Assembly (NCBI GenBank): GCA_036405895.1
Contig: DASWWS010000001.1
Span: forward strand, 71,864-135,863
Source: Minisyncoccota bacterium
GTDB lineage: Bacteria; Patescibacteriota; Minisyncoccia; Phycocordibacterales; UBA9973
Direction of reading: 5' to 3'
Length of the DNA: 64,000 nucleotides
Below, piece after piece: positions 1,441 through 62,117 of the stretch. The translations under genes were made by a program, and so were the position numbers. The stretch's first letter is position 1. The number at the start of each line of letters is the position of its first letter. The notes under the pieces are model-generated. The model saw only the letters and a list, made by a program, of their open reading frames with translations, made no database searches and was not told the DNA's origin.

Positions 1441-1500
1441 TTCAGAAGGACGGTCCTTCTGAAATCCCCCTAGCAAGGACCGTCCTTGCTAGGGGGATTT
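1441..1500. repeat. Palindromic intergenic repeat element, copy A. Two perfect hairpins, TCAGAAGGACGGTCCTTCTGA and CCCCCTAGCAAGGACCGTCCTTGCTAGGGGG, followed by a T-run. It doubles as the secF intrinsic terminator.
   Basis: Perfect inverted repeats read directly. The same hairpin units recur at 23181-23262 and 34497-34548. Confidence 0.8.
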
Positions 1501-3015: not shown

Positions 3016-3537
3016 ATGAAAAACCGCGGATTCACTTTAATCGAACTCCTTGTCGTTATTGCAGTTATTGGCATTCTTGCATCAGTGGTGATGGCAAGTT
3101 TAAACAGTGCTCGAGTGAAAGCCCGAAACGCGCGAAGGACAAGCGATATAAAACAACTATCGAATGCATTTCATCTAGGGCTTGATGGAACCGGGTCACT
3201 TCCAAGCAGTAATGGCACGTGGGCATGCGTCAGTGCAACGTGTTATGACGGATGGAGCGTACAAGCCCCTGTTGCTGCAGTCGATACCTATCTCGCACCA
3301 TATCTTCCTACAAAGCCATCGGACCCAGTGGGAGGGTCCCGCGGATATGGCGGGTATTTATATCTTAGTGCTTGGGTAGGGAGCGTTCGCTATAACGGAC
3401 TCACCTATCCTGCAGGAGCATACCTTTATTGGAATGTTGAGATGCCTGCAACAGAAAGTTCATGCGCTCCAGGTGGAATTTTGAGCTTTGGCACAAGCGG
3501 AACCTATGCCTCTTGTATGCTCCAACTTAATACATAG
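3016..3537 (+). CDS. Type IV pilin-like protein (prepilin-type N-terminal cleavage/methylation domain), paralog 1
   Basis: MKNRGFTLIELLVVIAVIGILASVVMASLNSAR class III signal. Conserved Cys pair (WACVSATCY) and YLAPYLPxKPSDPVGGSRGYGGYLY block shared with the paralogs at 3793 and 11711. Confidence 0.8.
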   Translation: MKNRGFTLIELLVVIAVIGILASVVMASLNSARVKARNARRTSDIKQLSNAFHLGLDGTGSLPSSNGTWACVSATCYDGWSVQAPVAAVDTYLAPYLPTKPSDPVGGSRGYGGYLYLSAWVGSVRYNGLTYPAGAYLYWNVEMPATESSCAPGGILSFGTSGTYASCMLQLNT

Positions 3538-23180: not shown

Positions 23181-23290
23181 CTAGCAAGGACGGTCCTTGC
23201 TAGGACCTAACGAGGACCGTCCTCGTTAGAATTTTTCAGAAGGACGGTCCTTCTGAAATAAAAAATCTCGTTACAGGACGAGGTTTTTTT
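23181..23290. repeat. Palindromic intergenic repeat element, copy B (three hairpin units plus a terminal hairpin with T-run = rnc terminator)
   Basis: CTAGCAAGGACGGTCCTTGCTAGG, TAACGAGGACCGTCCTCGTTA and TCAGAAGGACGGTCCTTCTGA, then ctcgttacaggacgaggttttttt. Confidence 0.8.
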
Positions 23291-23315
23291 GTGTGCGTAC
23301 GATATACTATTGTGT

Positions 23316-25592
23316 ATGCGTCTGCAGCACATAGAGATTGCCGGATTCAAGTCGTTTGCTAAAAAGAGCACGCTTGCTTTTACGGCACCTGTGACTGCAG
23401 TGGTGGGGCCGAACGGCTCGGGAAAAAGCAATGTCGTTGAAGCGTTTCGTTTTGTACTCGGCGAGCAGTCAATGAAAAGCATGCGCGGGAAAAGCGGGGC
23501 GGACCTTATTTTCCGCGGAGGCACCGGCACAAGCAAGCTCTCTCGTGCATCAGTTTCTATTACTTTCGACAACTCCGACAAAGTGTTTGCCTTTGCGCCA
23601 AGCAGTACTGAAAGCACTGTGCGCTCACCACTATTGTTTGAGAGCGTAACATTCACGCGCGAGCTTTATGCCGACGGTACGAGCAAGTACTTGATGAATG
23701 GCGCGGAAATTCGCCTCAAGCAAATGGCTGAACTCCTGTCATCGGTGAACATTGGTTCGTCTGGTCACCATATTATTTCGCAAGGGGAAGCTGATGGTAT
23801 TTTGCGCGCGTCCCCGCGCGAACGCCGTGAAATGCTCGAAGATGCGCTCGGACTAAAGATTTACCACTACCGCATCAAGGAAAGTGAGACGAAGCTTGCC
23901 CGTGCACTCGACACCCTTAAAGAAGTGCAGTCACTGCGCCGAGAAATCGTTCCTCATTTGAAATTCTTGGCTAAGCAAGTTGAGAAAGTCGAGAAAGGCC
24001 GTGCTATCCGTGTAGAACTCGAAGGTGCTCTTATACAATATTTGGCAACAGAACGAACACATCTTGGAGAAGAAGACGCACGCATTGGTAGTGCGGAGCA
24101 ATTAATCCGCACGCGCCATGCTGACCTCTCTGCACTGTTGGAAACATTGCCCGAAGAAGGTGCTGTGCACGACACAACTGTAACCGAGCGCGCAATGCTT
24201 TCAAACACCTTAAGAGAAATTCGCGATAAGCGCCGAACACTTGAAAGTCGCATCAGCCGATTGGAGGGAATGCTCGAGGCACACCGACAAATGATTGCAC
24301 GGCAGGCTGCTGTTCCTACAACGAGCGCAAGTATTTCTTTTGCAGCAACTGAATATGGGCAGCTTGTGAGCGATATCGAATTTTTCTTAAGTAATTTGCG
24401 CAGTGCCGAGAGCATTGATGCCGTGCGTGCAACACTTAGCCAGCTTGAAAGCCTGCTTGCTCGGTTGAAGACTCGCGAGAACAAACCTGTTGCGCAGGAA
24501 AATCACAACAGCCTTTCATACGATACGCTGAAAGACACGGCTCTTGAAATGGAAGGATTGCAAAAAGACCTTATCGCACTGTTGGGACAGGAAGATGAAG
24601 TAGTGGCGCGCATCAACACGCTTGAGCTTGCGCGTGAAGCGCTCTTAACCGGCAACCAAGAGAGCACTCGCAAGCGATACGAACTGCAAAGCGATATCCG
24701 CCAATGCGAAGCTGAGCTTCAAATTTTGGCCGTTTCTAAAAGCGCATTTCTTGAGCGCAAAGAATATTTTGATGCAGAGCTCAAGGAAGCAGGCTTTCTT
24801 TTCGGGCCGTCATTTATTCATGCTCTTCAGGCGGCGCAAGCGCTTCCGGAACTGAATTTGCACGACATGAAGCGGAGTATTGACCGCTTGAAGATTCGCC
24901 TTGATGAGCATTCAGGAATAGGTAACGACGTAACGGCAGAATACGAAGCGACAAAAGAGCGCGACGAATTCCTTGCTCGCGAAGTGACCGATATCGAAGC
25001 AAGCATTCGCAACCTCGAGTCGCTCATTATTGATTTGAAAAAGCTCTTGGATGAAAAGTTCACGACAGGGGTGACAGTAATCAACGAGCGCTTTGGAGAA
25101 TTCTTTAAAACAATGTTTGGAGGGGGAAGCGCATTCCTTTCAGTGACTATTGAAAAAAAGCGAAAGAAAAGAACGGACGAATCGCTCGATGATATGGACG
25201 GGGAACCAATGGATGAAAATGATGACCGATTCTTTGAGCGAGGTATTGACGTGCATGTAAATTTGCCGGAGAAAAAGGTGAAAGAGCTTCATATGCTCTC
25301 AGGGGGCGAGCGATCACTTGTTTCTATTGCGCTCCTCTTCGCGATCTCCCAAGTGAACCCACCACCATTTTTAGTGCTCGACGAAACCGATGCAGCACTC
25401 GATGAAGCAAACTCTCGCCGTTATGGAGACATGATAGAACTGTTGGCTGCCTATTCACAACTTATTGTGGTGACCCACAACCGCGAAACGATGTCGCGTG
25501 CAAGCGTGCTCTATGGAGTTACTCTTGGTGCAGACAGCGCTTCAAAACTCCTCTCGATTAAGTTCGATGATGCAGTGAAGGTAGCGAAATAA
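23316..25592 (+). CDS. smc: SMC-family chromosome condensation ATPase, short form (~758 aa)
   Basis: N-terminal head (IEIAGFKSFAKKST..VVGPNGSGKSNVVEAF). Long coiled-coil middle. C-terminal LSGGERSLVSIALLFAI signature and Walker B (FLVLDETDAALDE). It sits directly after rnc, as in the conserved rnc-smc(-ftsY) arrangement. ATG at 23316; the track ORF starts at TTG 23289. Confidence 0.7.
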   Translation: MRLQHIEIAGFKSFAKKSTLAFTAPVTAVVGPNGSGKSNVVEAFRFVLGEQSMKSMRGKSGADLIFRGGTGTSKLSRASVSITFDNSDKVFAFAPSSTESTVRSPLLFESVTFTRELYADGTSKYLMNGAEIRLKQMAELLSSVNIGSSGHHIISQGEADGILRASPRERREMLEDALGLKIYHYRIKESETKLARALDTLKEVQSLRREIVPHLKFLAKQVEKVEKGRAIRVELEGALIQYLATERTHLGEEDARIGSAEQLIRTRHADLSALLETLPEEGAVHDTTVTERAMLSNTLREIRDKRRTLESRISRLEGMLEAHRQMIARQAAVPTTSASISFAATEYGQLVSDIEFFLSNLRSAESIDAVRATLSQLESLLARLKTRENKPVAQENHNSLSYDTLKDTALEMEGLQKDLIALLGQEDEVVARINTLELAREALLTGNQESTRKRYELQSDIRQCEAELQILAVSKSAFLERKEYFDAELKEAGFLFGPSFIHALQAAQALPELNLHDMKRSIDRLKIRLDEHSGIGNDVTAEYEATKERDEFLAREVTDIEASIRNLESLIIDLKKLLDEKFTTGVTVINERFGEFFKTMFGGGSAFLSVTIEKKRKKRTDESLDDMDGEPMDENDDRFFERGIDVHVNLPEKKVKELHMLSGGERSLVSIALLFAISQVNPPPFLVLDETDAALDEANSRRYGDMIELLAAYSQLIVVTHNRETMSRASVLYGVTLGADSASKLLSIKFDDAVKVAK

Positions 25593-28287: not shown

Positions 28288-28479
28288 AGGGGTCGCTCTG
28301 GAGATAGGGCTGTGTTGTTTGAAAATCTATTGTTAAGAATTAAAATGAACGCAAATATCTATTAAAGAAACCTAACTATTCCAAGTTAATTAAGTAAGGA
28401 GGCAAGCATACGGAGATTCGGAAATACCAATTTTCTCTTGCCTCAGTCTAAGATGTAGTTTTAAACTTATCTTTTAAGA

Positions 28480-30189
<1,710 letters not shown>

Positions 30190-30395
30190 CAAATTGAGAT
30201 GTTTTCTCATTGTCCCTCGTGGATGGTGATAAGATTGATACGGTTGAACCGGCGCAAGTCGGAAAAAGGTTGTGGTATGTGACTTAATACATACTCCCTG
30301 TGCAAGGGTTAGAGCACAAAAATCCTCTCGTACGTATCTATAGAGCGTATGAGCGGTAGACTGAGGCAAAAGAAAGTTGATATACTTTACTGGTA

Positions 30396-34463: not shown

Positions 34464-34496
34464 GAAAAAACATCCTGAAACGGATGTTTTTTCTTA

Positions 34497-34548
34497 CCCT
34501 AGCAAGGACCGTCCTTCTGAAATTCAGAAGGACGGTCCTTGCTAGGGG
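34497..34548. repeat. Palindromic intergenic repeat element, copy C (a chimeric long palindrome built from halves of units 1 and 2)
   Basis: CCCTAGCAAGGACCGTCCTTCTGAAATTCAGAAGGACGGTCCTTGCTAGGGG. Confidence 0.8.
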
Positions 34549-34567
34549 ATTTGGTATACTGCTACGC

Positions 34568-35908
34568 ATGAATCACTCACCATGGATAGTCCAACTCAAA
34601 CGAACCCGCCCGGTCGAACCGCTTTCATCAAATCTTACCGCTGACGTTGCTGTTGTAGGAGGCGGGATTGCCGGAATAACAACCGCATATTTCCTTCTTA
34701 CAAAAACCACGCAATCAGTAATACTTTTGGAAGCAGGGAAAGTTGCACATGGTGCAACTGGGCACAATGCAGGACAGATTACGAGCTATTTTGAAAAGTC
34801 CTTTACCGAGCTCGCTGAACGCTACGGCATAGTGCAGACAACCGCAGCTCACCGAGCAATAGAAGAAGATGCACGCGCGCTCCTTGAACATATTTTTGCA
34901 CATGCCGAGCTTTCGACCCCGTTCTCGCAATTTATTGGGTATGACGGACTCGCGCTTGAAAGTCAGGTTCTTCAGGCGCTGCATGATCTCTATCTCAAGG
35001 CAAAAGCGGGCCTTCGCGTGCGCCCTTTGTTGATAGCAAAAGAGTGGGTAGCGCACGGGGTGATTCCGCATGAGTACACGCCGTACACACTGGTGGTTGC
35101 TCAAGAGAATATTCTCTCGCTTTTGGAAACAAGCGACACGCAGTATATTGCCGCTTTGCCATTTCTTTCCGGATGCATGAACAGCGCGCTTTTTACTGAA
35201 GAGCTTACGGGGTATTTGCTCGCAACATTTCCTGAGCGGTTTACCTTGAAAGAGCATACCCCTGTGTCACGTGTTGTGTTGGGTTCTGAAGAAGTTCTGC
35301 TCCACGCCGGTATTAATATAGTGACGACAAGTCATGTTGTGCTGTGCACGAACGGCTTTGAGTCTATACAGATTGATAATCCAGGGGGCGCTGATATTGA
35401 TACGGCATTTCACATGGAAGTTGAAGGGGTGGTAGGGTACATGGCAGCCTATAAAGAAGAACTCAATAAGGCGCCCTTTGCTGGAATTTATTCTCACGCT
35501 TTGGTCAGCGAAGCCAATCCGTATTTCTACACGACACGCCGTCCGTTTGAAGACGAAAGCAATGCAACGCATAATCTTGTATGTGTGGGAGGACCCGAAG
35601 TCTATCTGCCGGACCGCGCAACGTACGATGCGCACAAAGAATATCCGCTTGAGATTAGTGATGCAATTGGAACGTTTTCGTCACTGCATTACCAGCATCA
35701 CCCGCATATGGACTACTACTGGCACGGGCTTATGGGGTACACAAAAAGCTGGGTGCGTATGGTGGGATTTGAACCAAAAAACAAACGACTGTTGTATAAC
35801 CTCGGTTGTAACGGCGTCGGCATTCTTACCAGCGTGTACGGTTCGGAGCGCATCGCCCGACTCTTAAACGGAGAATTGCTCGCACACACTATCTTTGATC
35901 CGCAATAA
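34568..35908 (+). CDS. FAD-dependent oxidoreductase (DAO/glycine oxidase-like)
   Basis: Rossmann DVAVVGGGIAGITTAYFL...GATGHNAGQI. Start trimmed to the ATG at 34568, downstream of the repeat element. Confidence 0.7.
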   Translation: MNHSPWIVQLKRTRPVEPLSSNLTADVAVVGGGIAGITTAYFLLTKTTQSVILLEAGKVAHGATGHNAGQITSYFEKSFTELAERYGIVQTTAAHRAIEEDARALLEHIFAHAELSTPFSQFIGYDGLALESQVLQALHDLYLKAKAGLRVRPLLIAKEWVAHGVIPHEYTPYTLVVAQENILSLLETSDTQYIAALPFLSGCMNSALFTEELTGYLLATFPERFTLKEHTPVSRVVLGSEEVLLHAGINIVTTSHVVLCTNGFESIQIDNPGGADIDTAFHMEVEGVVGYMAAYKEELNKAPFAGIYSHALVSEANPYFYTTRRPFEDESNATHNLVCVGGPEVYLPDRATYDAHKEYPLEISDAIGTFSSLHYQHHPHMDYYWHGLMGYTKSWVRMVGFEPKNKRLLYNLGCNGVGILTSVYGSERIARLLNGELLAHTIFDPQ

Positions 35909-36111: not shown

Positions 36112-36252
36112 ATGGCAGCAAAAAGAAAGGTAGCCAAGAAAGCTGTGAAGAAGGCTGTTAAAAAGACAGTTAAGAAAGCAGTTAAGAAGGTTGCTAAAAA
36201 AGCAGTAAAGAAAGCAGCAAAGAAAAAGGTTGCTAAAAAGAAAAAGAAATAA
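36112..36252 (+). CDS. Lys/Ala-rich histone H1-like small basic protein (46 aa)
   Basis: MAAKRKVAKKAVKKAVKKTVKKAVKKVAKKAVKKAAKKKVAKKKKK. Followed by the hairpin accgcgacaacaaggccgcggtttt. Confidence 0.5.
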   Translation: MAAKRKVAKKAVKKAVKKTVKKAVKKVAKKAVKKAAKKKVAKKKKK

Positions 36253-61877: not shown

Positions 61878-61949
61878 TCCCCTGTGGCGCAGCGGTAGCG
61901 CAGTTGCCTGTTAAGCAATTGGTCGTAGGTTCGAATCCTACCGGGGGAG
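61878..61949 (+). tRNA. tRNA-Asn (anticodon GTT)
   Basis: Acceptor TCCCCTG/CGGGGGA. D-stem GCGC/GCGC. Anticodon stem GTTGC/GCAAT with loop CTGTTAA. T-arm GTAGG-TTCGAAT-CCTAC. Discriminator G. Confidence 0.8.
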
Positions 61950-62092
61950 CACACTATTTTAGAAATGATAATAAGAAATCGCTGTAATGGCGGTTTTTTA
62001 TTTTGCCATAGGATTCGAACCGTGGTGCCTGTTTTTAAGGAGCAGTGCGACTATAAAAACAGCGCATTTCGACCGAAGGGAGAGGCGAAGAA

Positions 62093-62117
62093 TACCGGGG
62101 GAGCACACTATTTTAGA
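62093..62117 (+). repeat. 25-bp direct repeat of the tRNA-Asn 3' end and downstream sequence (the first copy is at 61939-61963). The two copies bracket a 129-bp mini-insert.
   Basis: TACCGGGGGAGCACACTATTTTAGA occurs twice. The insert contains a 9-bp inverted repeat CTGTTTTTA/TAAAAACAG and a tRNA T-arm-like fragment GGATTCGAACC. Confidence 0.7.

Follow-up and report, generated by a model that had tools for sequence, protein, structure and literature searches.

The short palindromes of this genome are, in our reading, REP-type elements (repetitive extragenic palindromes), and their family has as its partner a RAYT-like Y1 HUH tyrosine transposase widespread in Paceibacteria/Parcubacteria, an interpretation to which we give a probability of roughly 0.78. 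The window, meaning the whole 64-kb stretch of DNA that was analysed, comes from a member of the Patescibacteria (CPR; Paceibacteria/Parcubacteria) and carries seven palindromes built on a GGAC-S-GTCC core at three intergenic sites: site A between secF and lemA, site B between rnc and smc, and site C between rnpB and a FAD oxidoreductase gene. The window's SecF is identical to one on record for a 'Candidatus Paceibacterota' MAG at NCBI. Beyond the window, our survey showed that the family exists across many genomes and flanks a transposase gene in a fixed architecture. A preliminary description had proposed a REP/MITE-like mobile palindrome, and this proposal is now well supported: the palindromes flank a Y1 transposase gene in many relatives and are absent or different at orthologous sites.

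Within the window, GGACSGTCC occurs seven times against 0.15 expected from shuffled sequence (largest count 1; 0 of 100 shuffles reached seven). The palindromes are perfect and 23–51 nt long each, three arm variants (X, Y and Z) coexist, and all seven units lie outside genes. The units and the terminators beside them are:

1439–1465, unstranded: unit X of site A, ATTTCAGAAGGACGGTCCTTCTGAAAT; a 27-nt perfect palindrome with centre G 1452, 3 nt past the secF stop codon.
1462–1500, plus strand: unit Y of site A, AAATCCCCCTAGCAAGGACCGTCCTTGCTAGGGGGATTT; a 39-nt perfect palindrome with centre C 1481 and a C5/G5 stem extension, then a T-run (TTTTT).
23181–23203, unstranded: unit Y of site B, CTAGCAAGGACGGTCCTTGCTAG; immediately 3′ of the rnc stop codon.
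23207–23229, unstranded: unit Z of site B, CTAACGAGGACCGTCCTCGTTAG; then AATTTTT, terminator-like by the terminator scan.
23234–23258, unstranded: second copy of unit X, at site B; third of the Y-Z-X row.
23259–23290, plus strand: rnc terminator, not of the family; an A-run, a CTCGT/ACGAG stem and T7.
34464–34493, plus strand: rnpB terminator hairpin, not of the family; upstream of the site C palindrome and kept in the relatives L143 and L146.
34497–34547, unstranded: site C doublet; a 51-nt perfect palindrome between the rnpB terminator and the FAD-oxidoreductase promoter.

The same small hairpins were found at the three intergenic loci, next to secF, rnc and rnpB, where the preliminary description had placed them; the shared core that it gave as 15 nt, AGGAC(S)GTCCT, counts 11 nt. 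As single-stranded DNA, blocks A, B and C fold at −27, −29 and −31 kcal/mol (z = −9.8, −9.2 and −13.2 relative to shuffled sequence). Site C consists of two inverted chimeric units (Y-left/core/X-right, A, X-left/core/Y-right) whose 25-nt arms are 100% complementary and 1 nt apart (−31.1 kcal/mol, z = −13.2), which bears out its earlier portrayal as a mosaic palindrome joining the arms of two units; an alternative description is a Y unit that has received a circularly permuted 24-nt X unit immediately behind GTCCTT. Site C alone has the form of a REPIN, an inverted doublet that folds into one long hairpin, sites A and B being rows of separate hairpins. The X copies at 1439–1465 and 23234–23259 are identical over 26 nt, consistent with recent copying. 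An Rfam scan of the window at gathering thresholds returned only 16S rRNA, RNase P RNA and one tRNA, with nothing at sites A–C. The ~13 kb of additional flank that L151 and L154 supply from the same population contained no further unit, and unit density in this genome is modest, at three loci in ~77 kb.

For each of the three sites we found relatives that share the gene order, and every window site differs from them. At site B, a block of ~78 nt with three palindromes is missing from L104 (Rnc 89% identical) and from L109 and L111 (82%), where the rnc stop codon is followed by a terminator hairpin with its T-run, a TATACT or TATAAT −10 hexamer and the smc ATG. At site A, X and Y are missing from L147 (SecF 83% identical) and L149 (79%), which keep the lemA promoter and ATG and whose secF–lemA spacers each hold an unrelated, ordinary terminator of their own. 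At site C, L146 (95% identical) has a single Z unit at the exact position of the doublet, L143 (89%) has a decayed Z-like relic, and L144 and L145 (78%) have nothing. The window matches contigs of its own population exactly. Because the relatives have no palindrome or a different one and keep their own terminators and promoters, these comparisons show that the window copies are insertions or replacements, with turnover, relative to close relatives. Absence and replacement in relatives, identity among contigs of the population and the identical X copies together show that units were gained and replaced over a short evolutionary span. The comparison of orthologous spacers, a check put forward in the preliminary description, thus revealed sequences that relatives do not conserve, which speaks against ordinary conserved terminators.

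We then consider the family at large. One genome per species was scanned with the pattern TMRSAAGGACSGTCCTTSYKA, which covers X and Y units and their mosaics. The scan yielded 98 loci, and all records bearing a taxon name were Patescibacteria MAGs (Nomura-, Taylor-, Zambryski-, Staskawicz- and Colwellbacteria, 'Paceibacterota' and Minisyncoccia); chance, estimated under uniform composition, would give ~17 matches scattered across all phyla. Viral contigs scanned for the motif gave no match. Counted in 8-kb chunks, palindromes matched at up to eight loci per MAG. The consensus is a 21-bp palindrome, T[A/C]GCAAGGAC-S-GTCCTTGC[G/T]A, and its arm, T[A/C]GCAAGGAC, holds also where the search pattern permitted other bases. 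The spacing of half-sites is strictly 1 nt, with 140 inverted AGGAC-N1-GTCCT in the 98 loci against 0–3 for any other spacing. Of 141 centre bases, 137 are C or G (G 74, C 63, A 2, T 2), and no consistent rule connected the choice of C or G with orientation to the transposase gene or to neighbouring units. Past 10 nt the arms are lineage-specific and often still self-complementary, up to 22 nt per side; that outer arms diverge yet stay self-complementary points to selection or copying of a hairpin and not to a fixed protein-binding site. Y is the common unit type, X and Z being minority arm variants whose arms were re-found only in the window's own lineage, in L146 and L087 (MAG JBMOIO01; SecF 79% identical).

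Several further features of the units deserve mention. A variant core, AAGAAC-N-GTTCTT, replaces AAGGAC-S-GTCCTT upstream of the transposase genes in L004, L019, L055 and L066, with arms and position unchanged. Beside full palindromes there are also 'stuttered', progressively truncated direct copies of one arm, such as GTCCTTGCTACATT / CTTGCTACATT (L005 4650–4740; L034 2640–2700; L079 4190–4960; L057 2800–3620; L001 470–510; L065 1050–1085). Stutter lies within 75 nt of 32 of 135 units (24%), compared with 2 of 135 in a control region, and is absent from the window copies; possible sources are hairpin slippage and aberrant cleavage and joining. Breakpoints that cluster immediately outside the core (arm lengths of 5–7 nt, in by-catch copies) were considered as evidence of a cleavage site and set aside: some are simple point mutations, and they serve as a lead only.

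Placement of the copies was biased towards spacers. Gene calls, which were crude, put no more than 20% of the copies in the 98 loci inside ORFs, against ~84% of DNA that is coding. The spacers are co-directional for 73 copies, convergent for 10 and divergent for 15, roughly in proportion to spacer length; among the co-directional ones, 51 copies are closer to the upstream 3′ end and 22 to the downstream 5′ end. Some 14 copies in other genomes lie inside genes judged real from their translations, always in an open frame, and encode LARTVLA, SQG[P/R]SLR or QKDGPSEK. Their hosts are TsaD (L087, 3800–5032), GatA (L031), SecA (L058 and L068), PyrF (L073), glycosyltransferases (L012 and L082), a gene in L076 (RAAC4_OD1) and a methyltransferase. 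When SecA C-termini were aligned, both Nomurabacteria SecAs proved to carry the copy in a variable linker. REPs have been described as extragenic and near gene 3′ ends, with some in-frame intragenic copies and with TAG stop codons supplied by the repeat (PMC3733652). The extragenic bias, the 3′-end preference, the in-frame copies and the palindrome-supplied TAG stop seen here match those reported features.

To find palindrome-associated genes, we clustered all ORFs of the 98 loci. The top family comprised 17 proteins of ~225 aa in 16 loci and carried the transposase motifs NHFH (HUH) and YIHLNP (tyrosine), ~60 residues apart. The protein passes the Pfam model PF01797 Y1_Tnp ('Transposase IS200 like') with 28.9 bits at a cut-off of 23. 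All 24 relatives tested matched the NCBIfam model REP_Tyr_transpos (RAYT, NF047646; best E = 5e-9), whose 80-bit cut-off the transposase misses (30.4 bits, E = 3e-7), and none of the 24 matched any other NCBIfam transposase model, IS200 TnpA included. The family is very large, a profile search having matched at least 7,990 of 8,000 scored candidates; among the best 120 of the 7,990, database names read 'transposase', 'Transposase IS200-like' or hypothetical. Searching the PDB with a profile of the transposase alignment produced nothing at E <= 1, and an AlphaFold2 model from a shallow 24-sequence alignment reached a pLDDT of 34, too poor for fold comparison.

Palindromes flank the transposase gene on both sides in eight loci (L005, L026, L064, L066, L077, L085, L095 and L096), the REPtron arrangement known from REP/RAYT systems (PMC3733652). 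Gene and flanking palindromes form a compact unit of ~0.8 kb. Apart from L066, which has two tandem gene copies, MAGs have at most one transposase locus each in 8-kb chunks. The upstream unit is centred 39–41 nt before the ATG in eight of the nine genes with a core-bearing upstream unit; the downstream unit lies 8–31 nt past the stop codon, overlaps the stop or, in L077, sits within the 3′ end of the ORF. In two transposase loci the palindrome itself contributes the TAG stop codon. As a separate observation, the repeat encodes the C-terminus of the transposase in L072 and L077. The units beside the gene have Y-type arms or the GAAC-core variant only, X- and Z-type arms never having been seen there.

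Upstream of the gene, an arm of the palindrome reading TTGC[TG]A lies 16–18 nt before a TAnnnT −10 hexamer in 12 of 13 cases, and the hexamer usually stands 6 nt (once 8) before the ATG. This −35 spacing of the arm indicates that the −35 element of the transposase promoter is built into the upstream repeat. In the loci examined, no tnpB adjoins the transposase gene. The 64-kb window itself has no transposase gene (tblastn E = 5.4), nor do the ~13 kb of extra flank in L151 and L154; an enzyme that mobilises the palindromes in trans is presumed for this genome.

Terminator function has to be weighed site by site. At site A, the terminator scan found a GC-rich hairpin of 19 pairs with a T tail (T5) at 1461–1501, the sole terminator-like hairpin after secF. 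Because nothing else there resembles a terminator and relatives carry a different one, the Y unit has plausibly replaced the ancestral secF terminator by co-option, to judge from sequence comparison. At site B, the rnc terminator that relatives conserve is the separate hairpin at 23259–23290, and the palindrome of site C stands behind the rnpB terminator and just before the next promoter, without a T-run. Of the features of an intrinsic terminator, hairpin plus T-run was found for site A Y and site B Z and not for site C, and conservation at orthologous positions was not found. The view that copies A and B are T-run terminators is thus only partly upheld: it is plausible for site A, where Y is the only such hairpin; at site B the final T-run belongs to a hairpin outside the family, and relatives keep that separate terminator without any palindromes.

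It is very improbable, then, that the palindromes at large are ordinary intrinsic terminators resembling one another through a lineage-specific preference for one hairpin. The T-runs behind site A Y and site B Z, both flagged by the scan, fit such an account, as do the 51 co-directional copies closer to an upstream 3′ end against 22, and the GC-rich 19-bp stem and T5 of site A Y right after secF are those of a Rho-independent terminator. Yet orthologous spacers hold their own terminators without palindromes, site C follows an existing terminator and has no T-run, the three units of site B precede a conserved terminator, 15 copies sit in divergent spacers and ~14 in frame inside real genes, and units also occur upstream of the transposase gene. 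Unlike Rho-independent terminators, the palindromes are not conserved at orthologous sites, and most copies either have no T-run or stand in places where transcripts do not end, such as divergent spacers, coding regions and the stretch before the transposase gene. We see just as little prospect for double-stranded sites bound by a dimeric protein (an operator, or a nucleoid or segregation site) or for DNA-uptake sequences. The exact 1-nt spacing and a 17-bp symmetric core very conserved across genomes would suit a dimer, and binding at the unit that overlaps the −35 hexamer before the transposase gene could regulate it; elsewhere, however, units keep no fixed distance to promoters, sites differ between near-identical relatives, and arms that vary by lineage while staying self-complementary to 22 nt fit hairpin formation and not a fixed protein site. 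These points, and the intragenic copies in other genomes, give no support to a general role as the operator of one shared DNA-binding factor, which had been suggested earlier. Type IV pilin-like genes are abundant in the window, as an uptake role might favour, but known uptake sequences (DUS/USS) occur about once per kb, have one fixed motif per species and are common inside genes, against seven units at three loci in 64 kb, none intragenic and in three arm variants.

A closer competitor, though still an unlikely one, takes the palindromes for the ends of an IS200-like insertion sequence and the solo copies for miniature derivatives (PATE/MITE-like) or solo ends, with no domesticated REP/RAYT system. 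IS200/IS605 elements and PATEs likewise have a Y1 HUH transposase (PF01797) and hairpins at both gene ends, and a single-strand, hairpin-guided mechanism is presumed by analogy. The passed Pfam model 'Transposase IS200 like', the records named 'transposase' or 'Transposase IS200-like', the tandem gene pair of L066 and the compactness of gene plus palindromes at ~0.8 kb all favour it. Both flanking hairpins are nevertheless the same palindrome, without distinct left and right ends, and solo palindromes outnumber the gene, MAGs having at most one transposase locus against palindromes at up to eight loci (8-kb chunks). IS200 TnpA is ~130–150 aa long, whereas the protein here has ~225 aa with a conserved C-terminal extension; RAYT is its only consistent NCBIfam match, with no match to the IS200 TnpA model, no tnpB lies adjacent, and the promoter architecture is fixed. 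The difference between this account and the REP/RAYT reading is partly one of wording.

The REP/RAYT reading that we prefer draws on likeness to the E. coli REP/BIME and TnpA-REP system and to Pseudomonas REPINs. As there, the repeats are short hairpins, mostly extragenic and near gene 3′ ends, that occur singly, in clusters or as an inverted doublet; the same repeats lie on both sides of a single HUH/Tyr transposase gene; some copies are intragenic and in frame, TAG stops are supplied by the repeat, and orthologous sites differ by presence and absence. The differences are equally clear. In the Patescibacteria, each unit is a perfect palindrome of 21 bp (up to 45 bp) around an odd C/G centre, and the 17-bp core is conserved over several candidate-phylum-level Parcubacteria lineages instead of being species-specific. 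The protein falls below the NCBI RAYT cut-off, the host is an ultra-small CPR bacterium, and the −35 hexamer lies inside the upstream repeat. Where canonical RAYTs have the WQ motif (Table 1, PMC6006769), the Patescibacteria protein has GALFGG. The GTAG and CGTC REP superfamilies (Di Nocera et al. 2013) are defined by an unpaired GTAG or CGTC tag at one end of the hairpin (PMC3733652). No such unpaired tag was found among the palindromes: T[A/C]G is paired in the stem, position −11 is mixed (A 52, C 85, G 45, T 78), and CGTC occurs only inside the symmetric core. With a RAYT score below cut-off, no GTAG/CGTC tag and no transposase in the window or its ~13 kb of flank, the system is filed as one that works like REP/RAYT and stands outside the described GTAG and CGTC families.

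Rickettsia palindromic elements (RPE) offer a further parallel, in that related genomes carry units in frame within conserved genes (GatA, SecA, PyrF, TsaD and glycosyltransferases). RPE-1 elements, at ~100–150 bp, are longer than the Patescibacteria units, and in contrast to RPEs, none of the seven window units is inside a gene.

Hairpin-guided single-strand cleavage and joining is established for IS200/IS605 and for E. coli TnpA-REP, and by analogy with both each palindromic unit would fold into a hairpin on single-stranded DNA, with single-stranded TAGCAAGGACSGTCCTTGCTA as a candidate substrate form. The transposase would recognise the conserved GCAAGGAC-S-GTCCTTGC stem, nick beside it and rejoin strands. 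Nicking and rejoining of this kind would copy units to new, mostly intergenic places and would recombine units with one another; the interchangeable outer arms and the 51-nt doublet of site C would follow from exchange at the core/arm boundary. Once inserted, a unit may be co-opted, as the Y of site A appears to have been for termination of secF.

Other features of the window were recorded alongside. A −10 hexamer, TATGCT or TATACT, stands 6–7 nt before the ATG of lemA, smc and the FAD oxidoreductase gene (1531–1545, 23303–23318 and 34555–34570), and so short a distance suggests that these mRNAs are leaderless; the layout is conserved in relatives and is shared by 12 of 13 transposase genes. 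The 16S rRNA gene (28473–30194) measures 1,722 nt against a model of 1,533 positions. Its insertion at 29631–29814 holds three tandem hairpin repeats of ~56–63 nt, each with the loop AGTATTTATAT, which are unrelated to the GGACSGTCC family. The whole gene is enclosed by a 27-nt inverted repeat (28424–28450 and 30357–30383; 89% complementary), a possible processing stem.

Five paralogous type IV pilin-like genes start at 3016, 3793, 10513, 11711 and 63919 and share the N-terminal signal MKNRGFTLIELLVVIAVIGILA; their number and placement differ among relatives, with three between RNR and the FAD oxidoreductase gene in L144, for example. Between the FAD oxidoreductase gene and secA, a tiny ORF at ~36112–36252 encodes a Lys/Ala-rich peptide (MAAKRKVAKKAVKKAVKKTVKK...) with 12-nt periodic repeats, and relatives hold small ORFs of 46–58 aa at that position. 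The last 32 nt of a tRNA-Asn (61878–61950), spanning its 3′ end, recur at 91% identity 154 nt downstream (62086–62117). This repeat could be the scar of an integrated element; no integrase gene lies nearby, the next gene being pyruvate kinase.

A wider proposal, which we advance tentatively and at somewhat less than even odds, is that Paceibacteria hold an old, class-wide REP–transposase partnership of a new subclass. It would combine a 17-bp core, constant over candidate-phylum-level lineages, in a perfectly symmetric 21-bp hairpin, a divergent Y1 enzyme whose −35 element lies inside the upstream repeat, making self-regulation possible, strand exchange at the core/arm boundary that yields chimeric arms and doublets like that of site C, and regular recruitment of repeats as terminators and in-frame linkers in genomes below 1 Mb. 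In the literature searched, we found no paper linking RAYT/REP elements with Patescibacteria, and a literature search with the palindrome sequence as a string returned unrelated mouse qPCR primers only. To our knowledge, descriptions of REP/RAYT systems come almost wholly from Proteobacteria, along with a few other cultured phyla.

For genome annotation, the palindromes can mislead both gene callers, with ORFs extended through units in several databases, and terminator prediction in CPR MAGs. The FAD-oxidoreductase frame of the window is open upstream through the palindrome: its mechanical ORF starts at 34484, and the database entry P0001 has 466 aa against a protein of 446 aa. Promoter position and orthologues place the true start at 34568.

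Collectively, the palindromes and their transposase represent a clearly related but structurally distinct version of the REP/RAYT system, found throughout a large group of ultra-small, gene-poor bacteria, which combines a perfect palindrome lacking the GTAG tag with a divergent enzyme and a repeat-borne promoter. Whether REP/RAYT systems are parasites or domesticated helpers is still debated, and ultra-small genomes offer a natural test because streamlined genomes should shed useless repeats. If the partnership is indeed old and class-wide, its retention in such reduced genomes would argue for a benefit to the host over mere selfishness.
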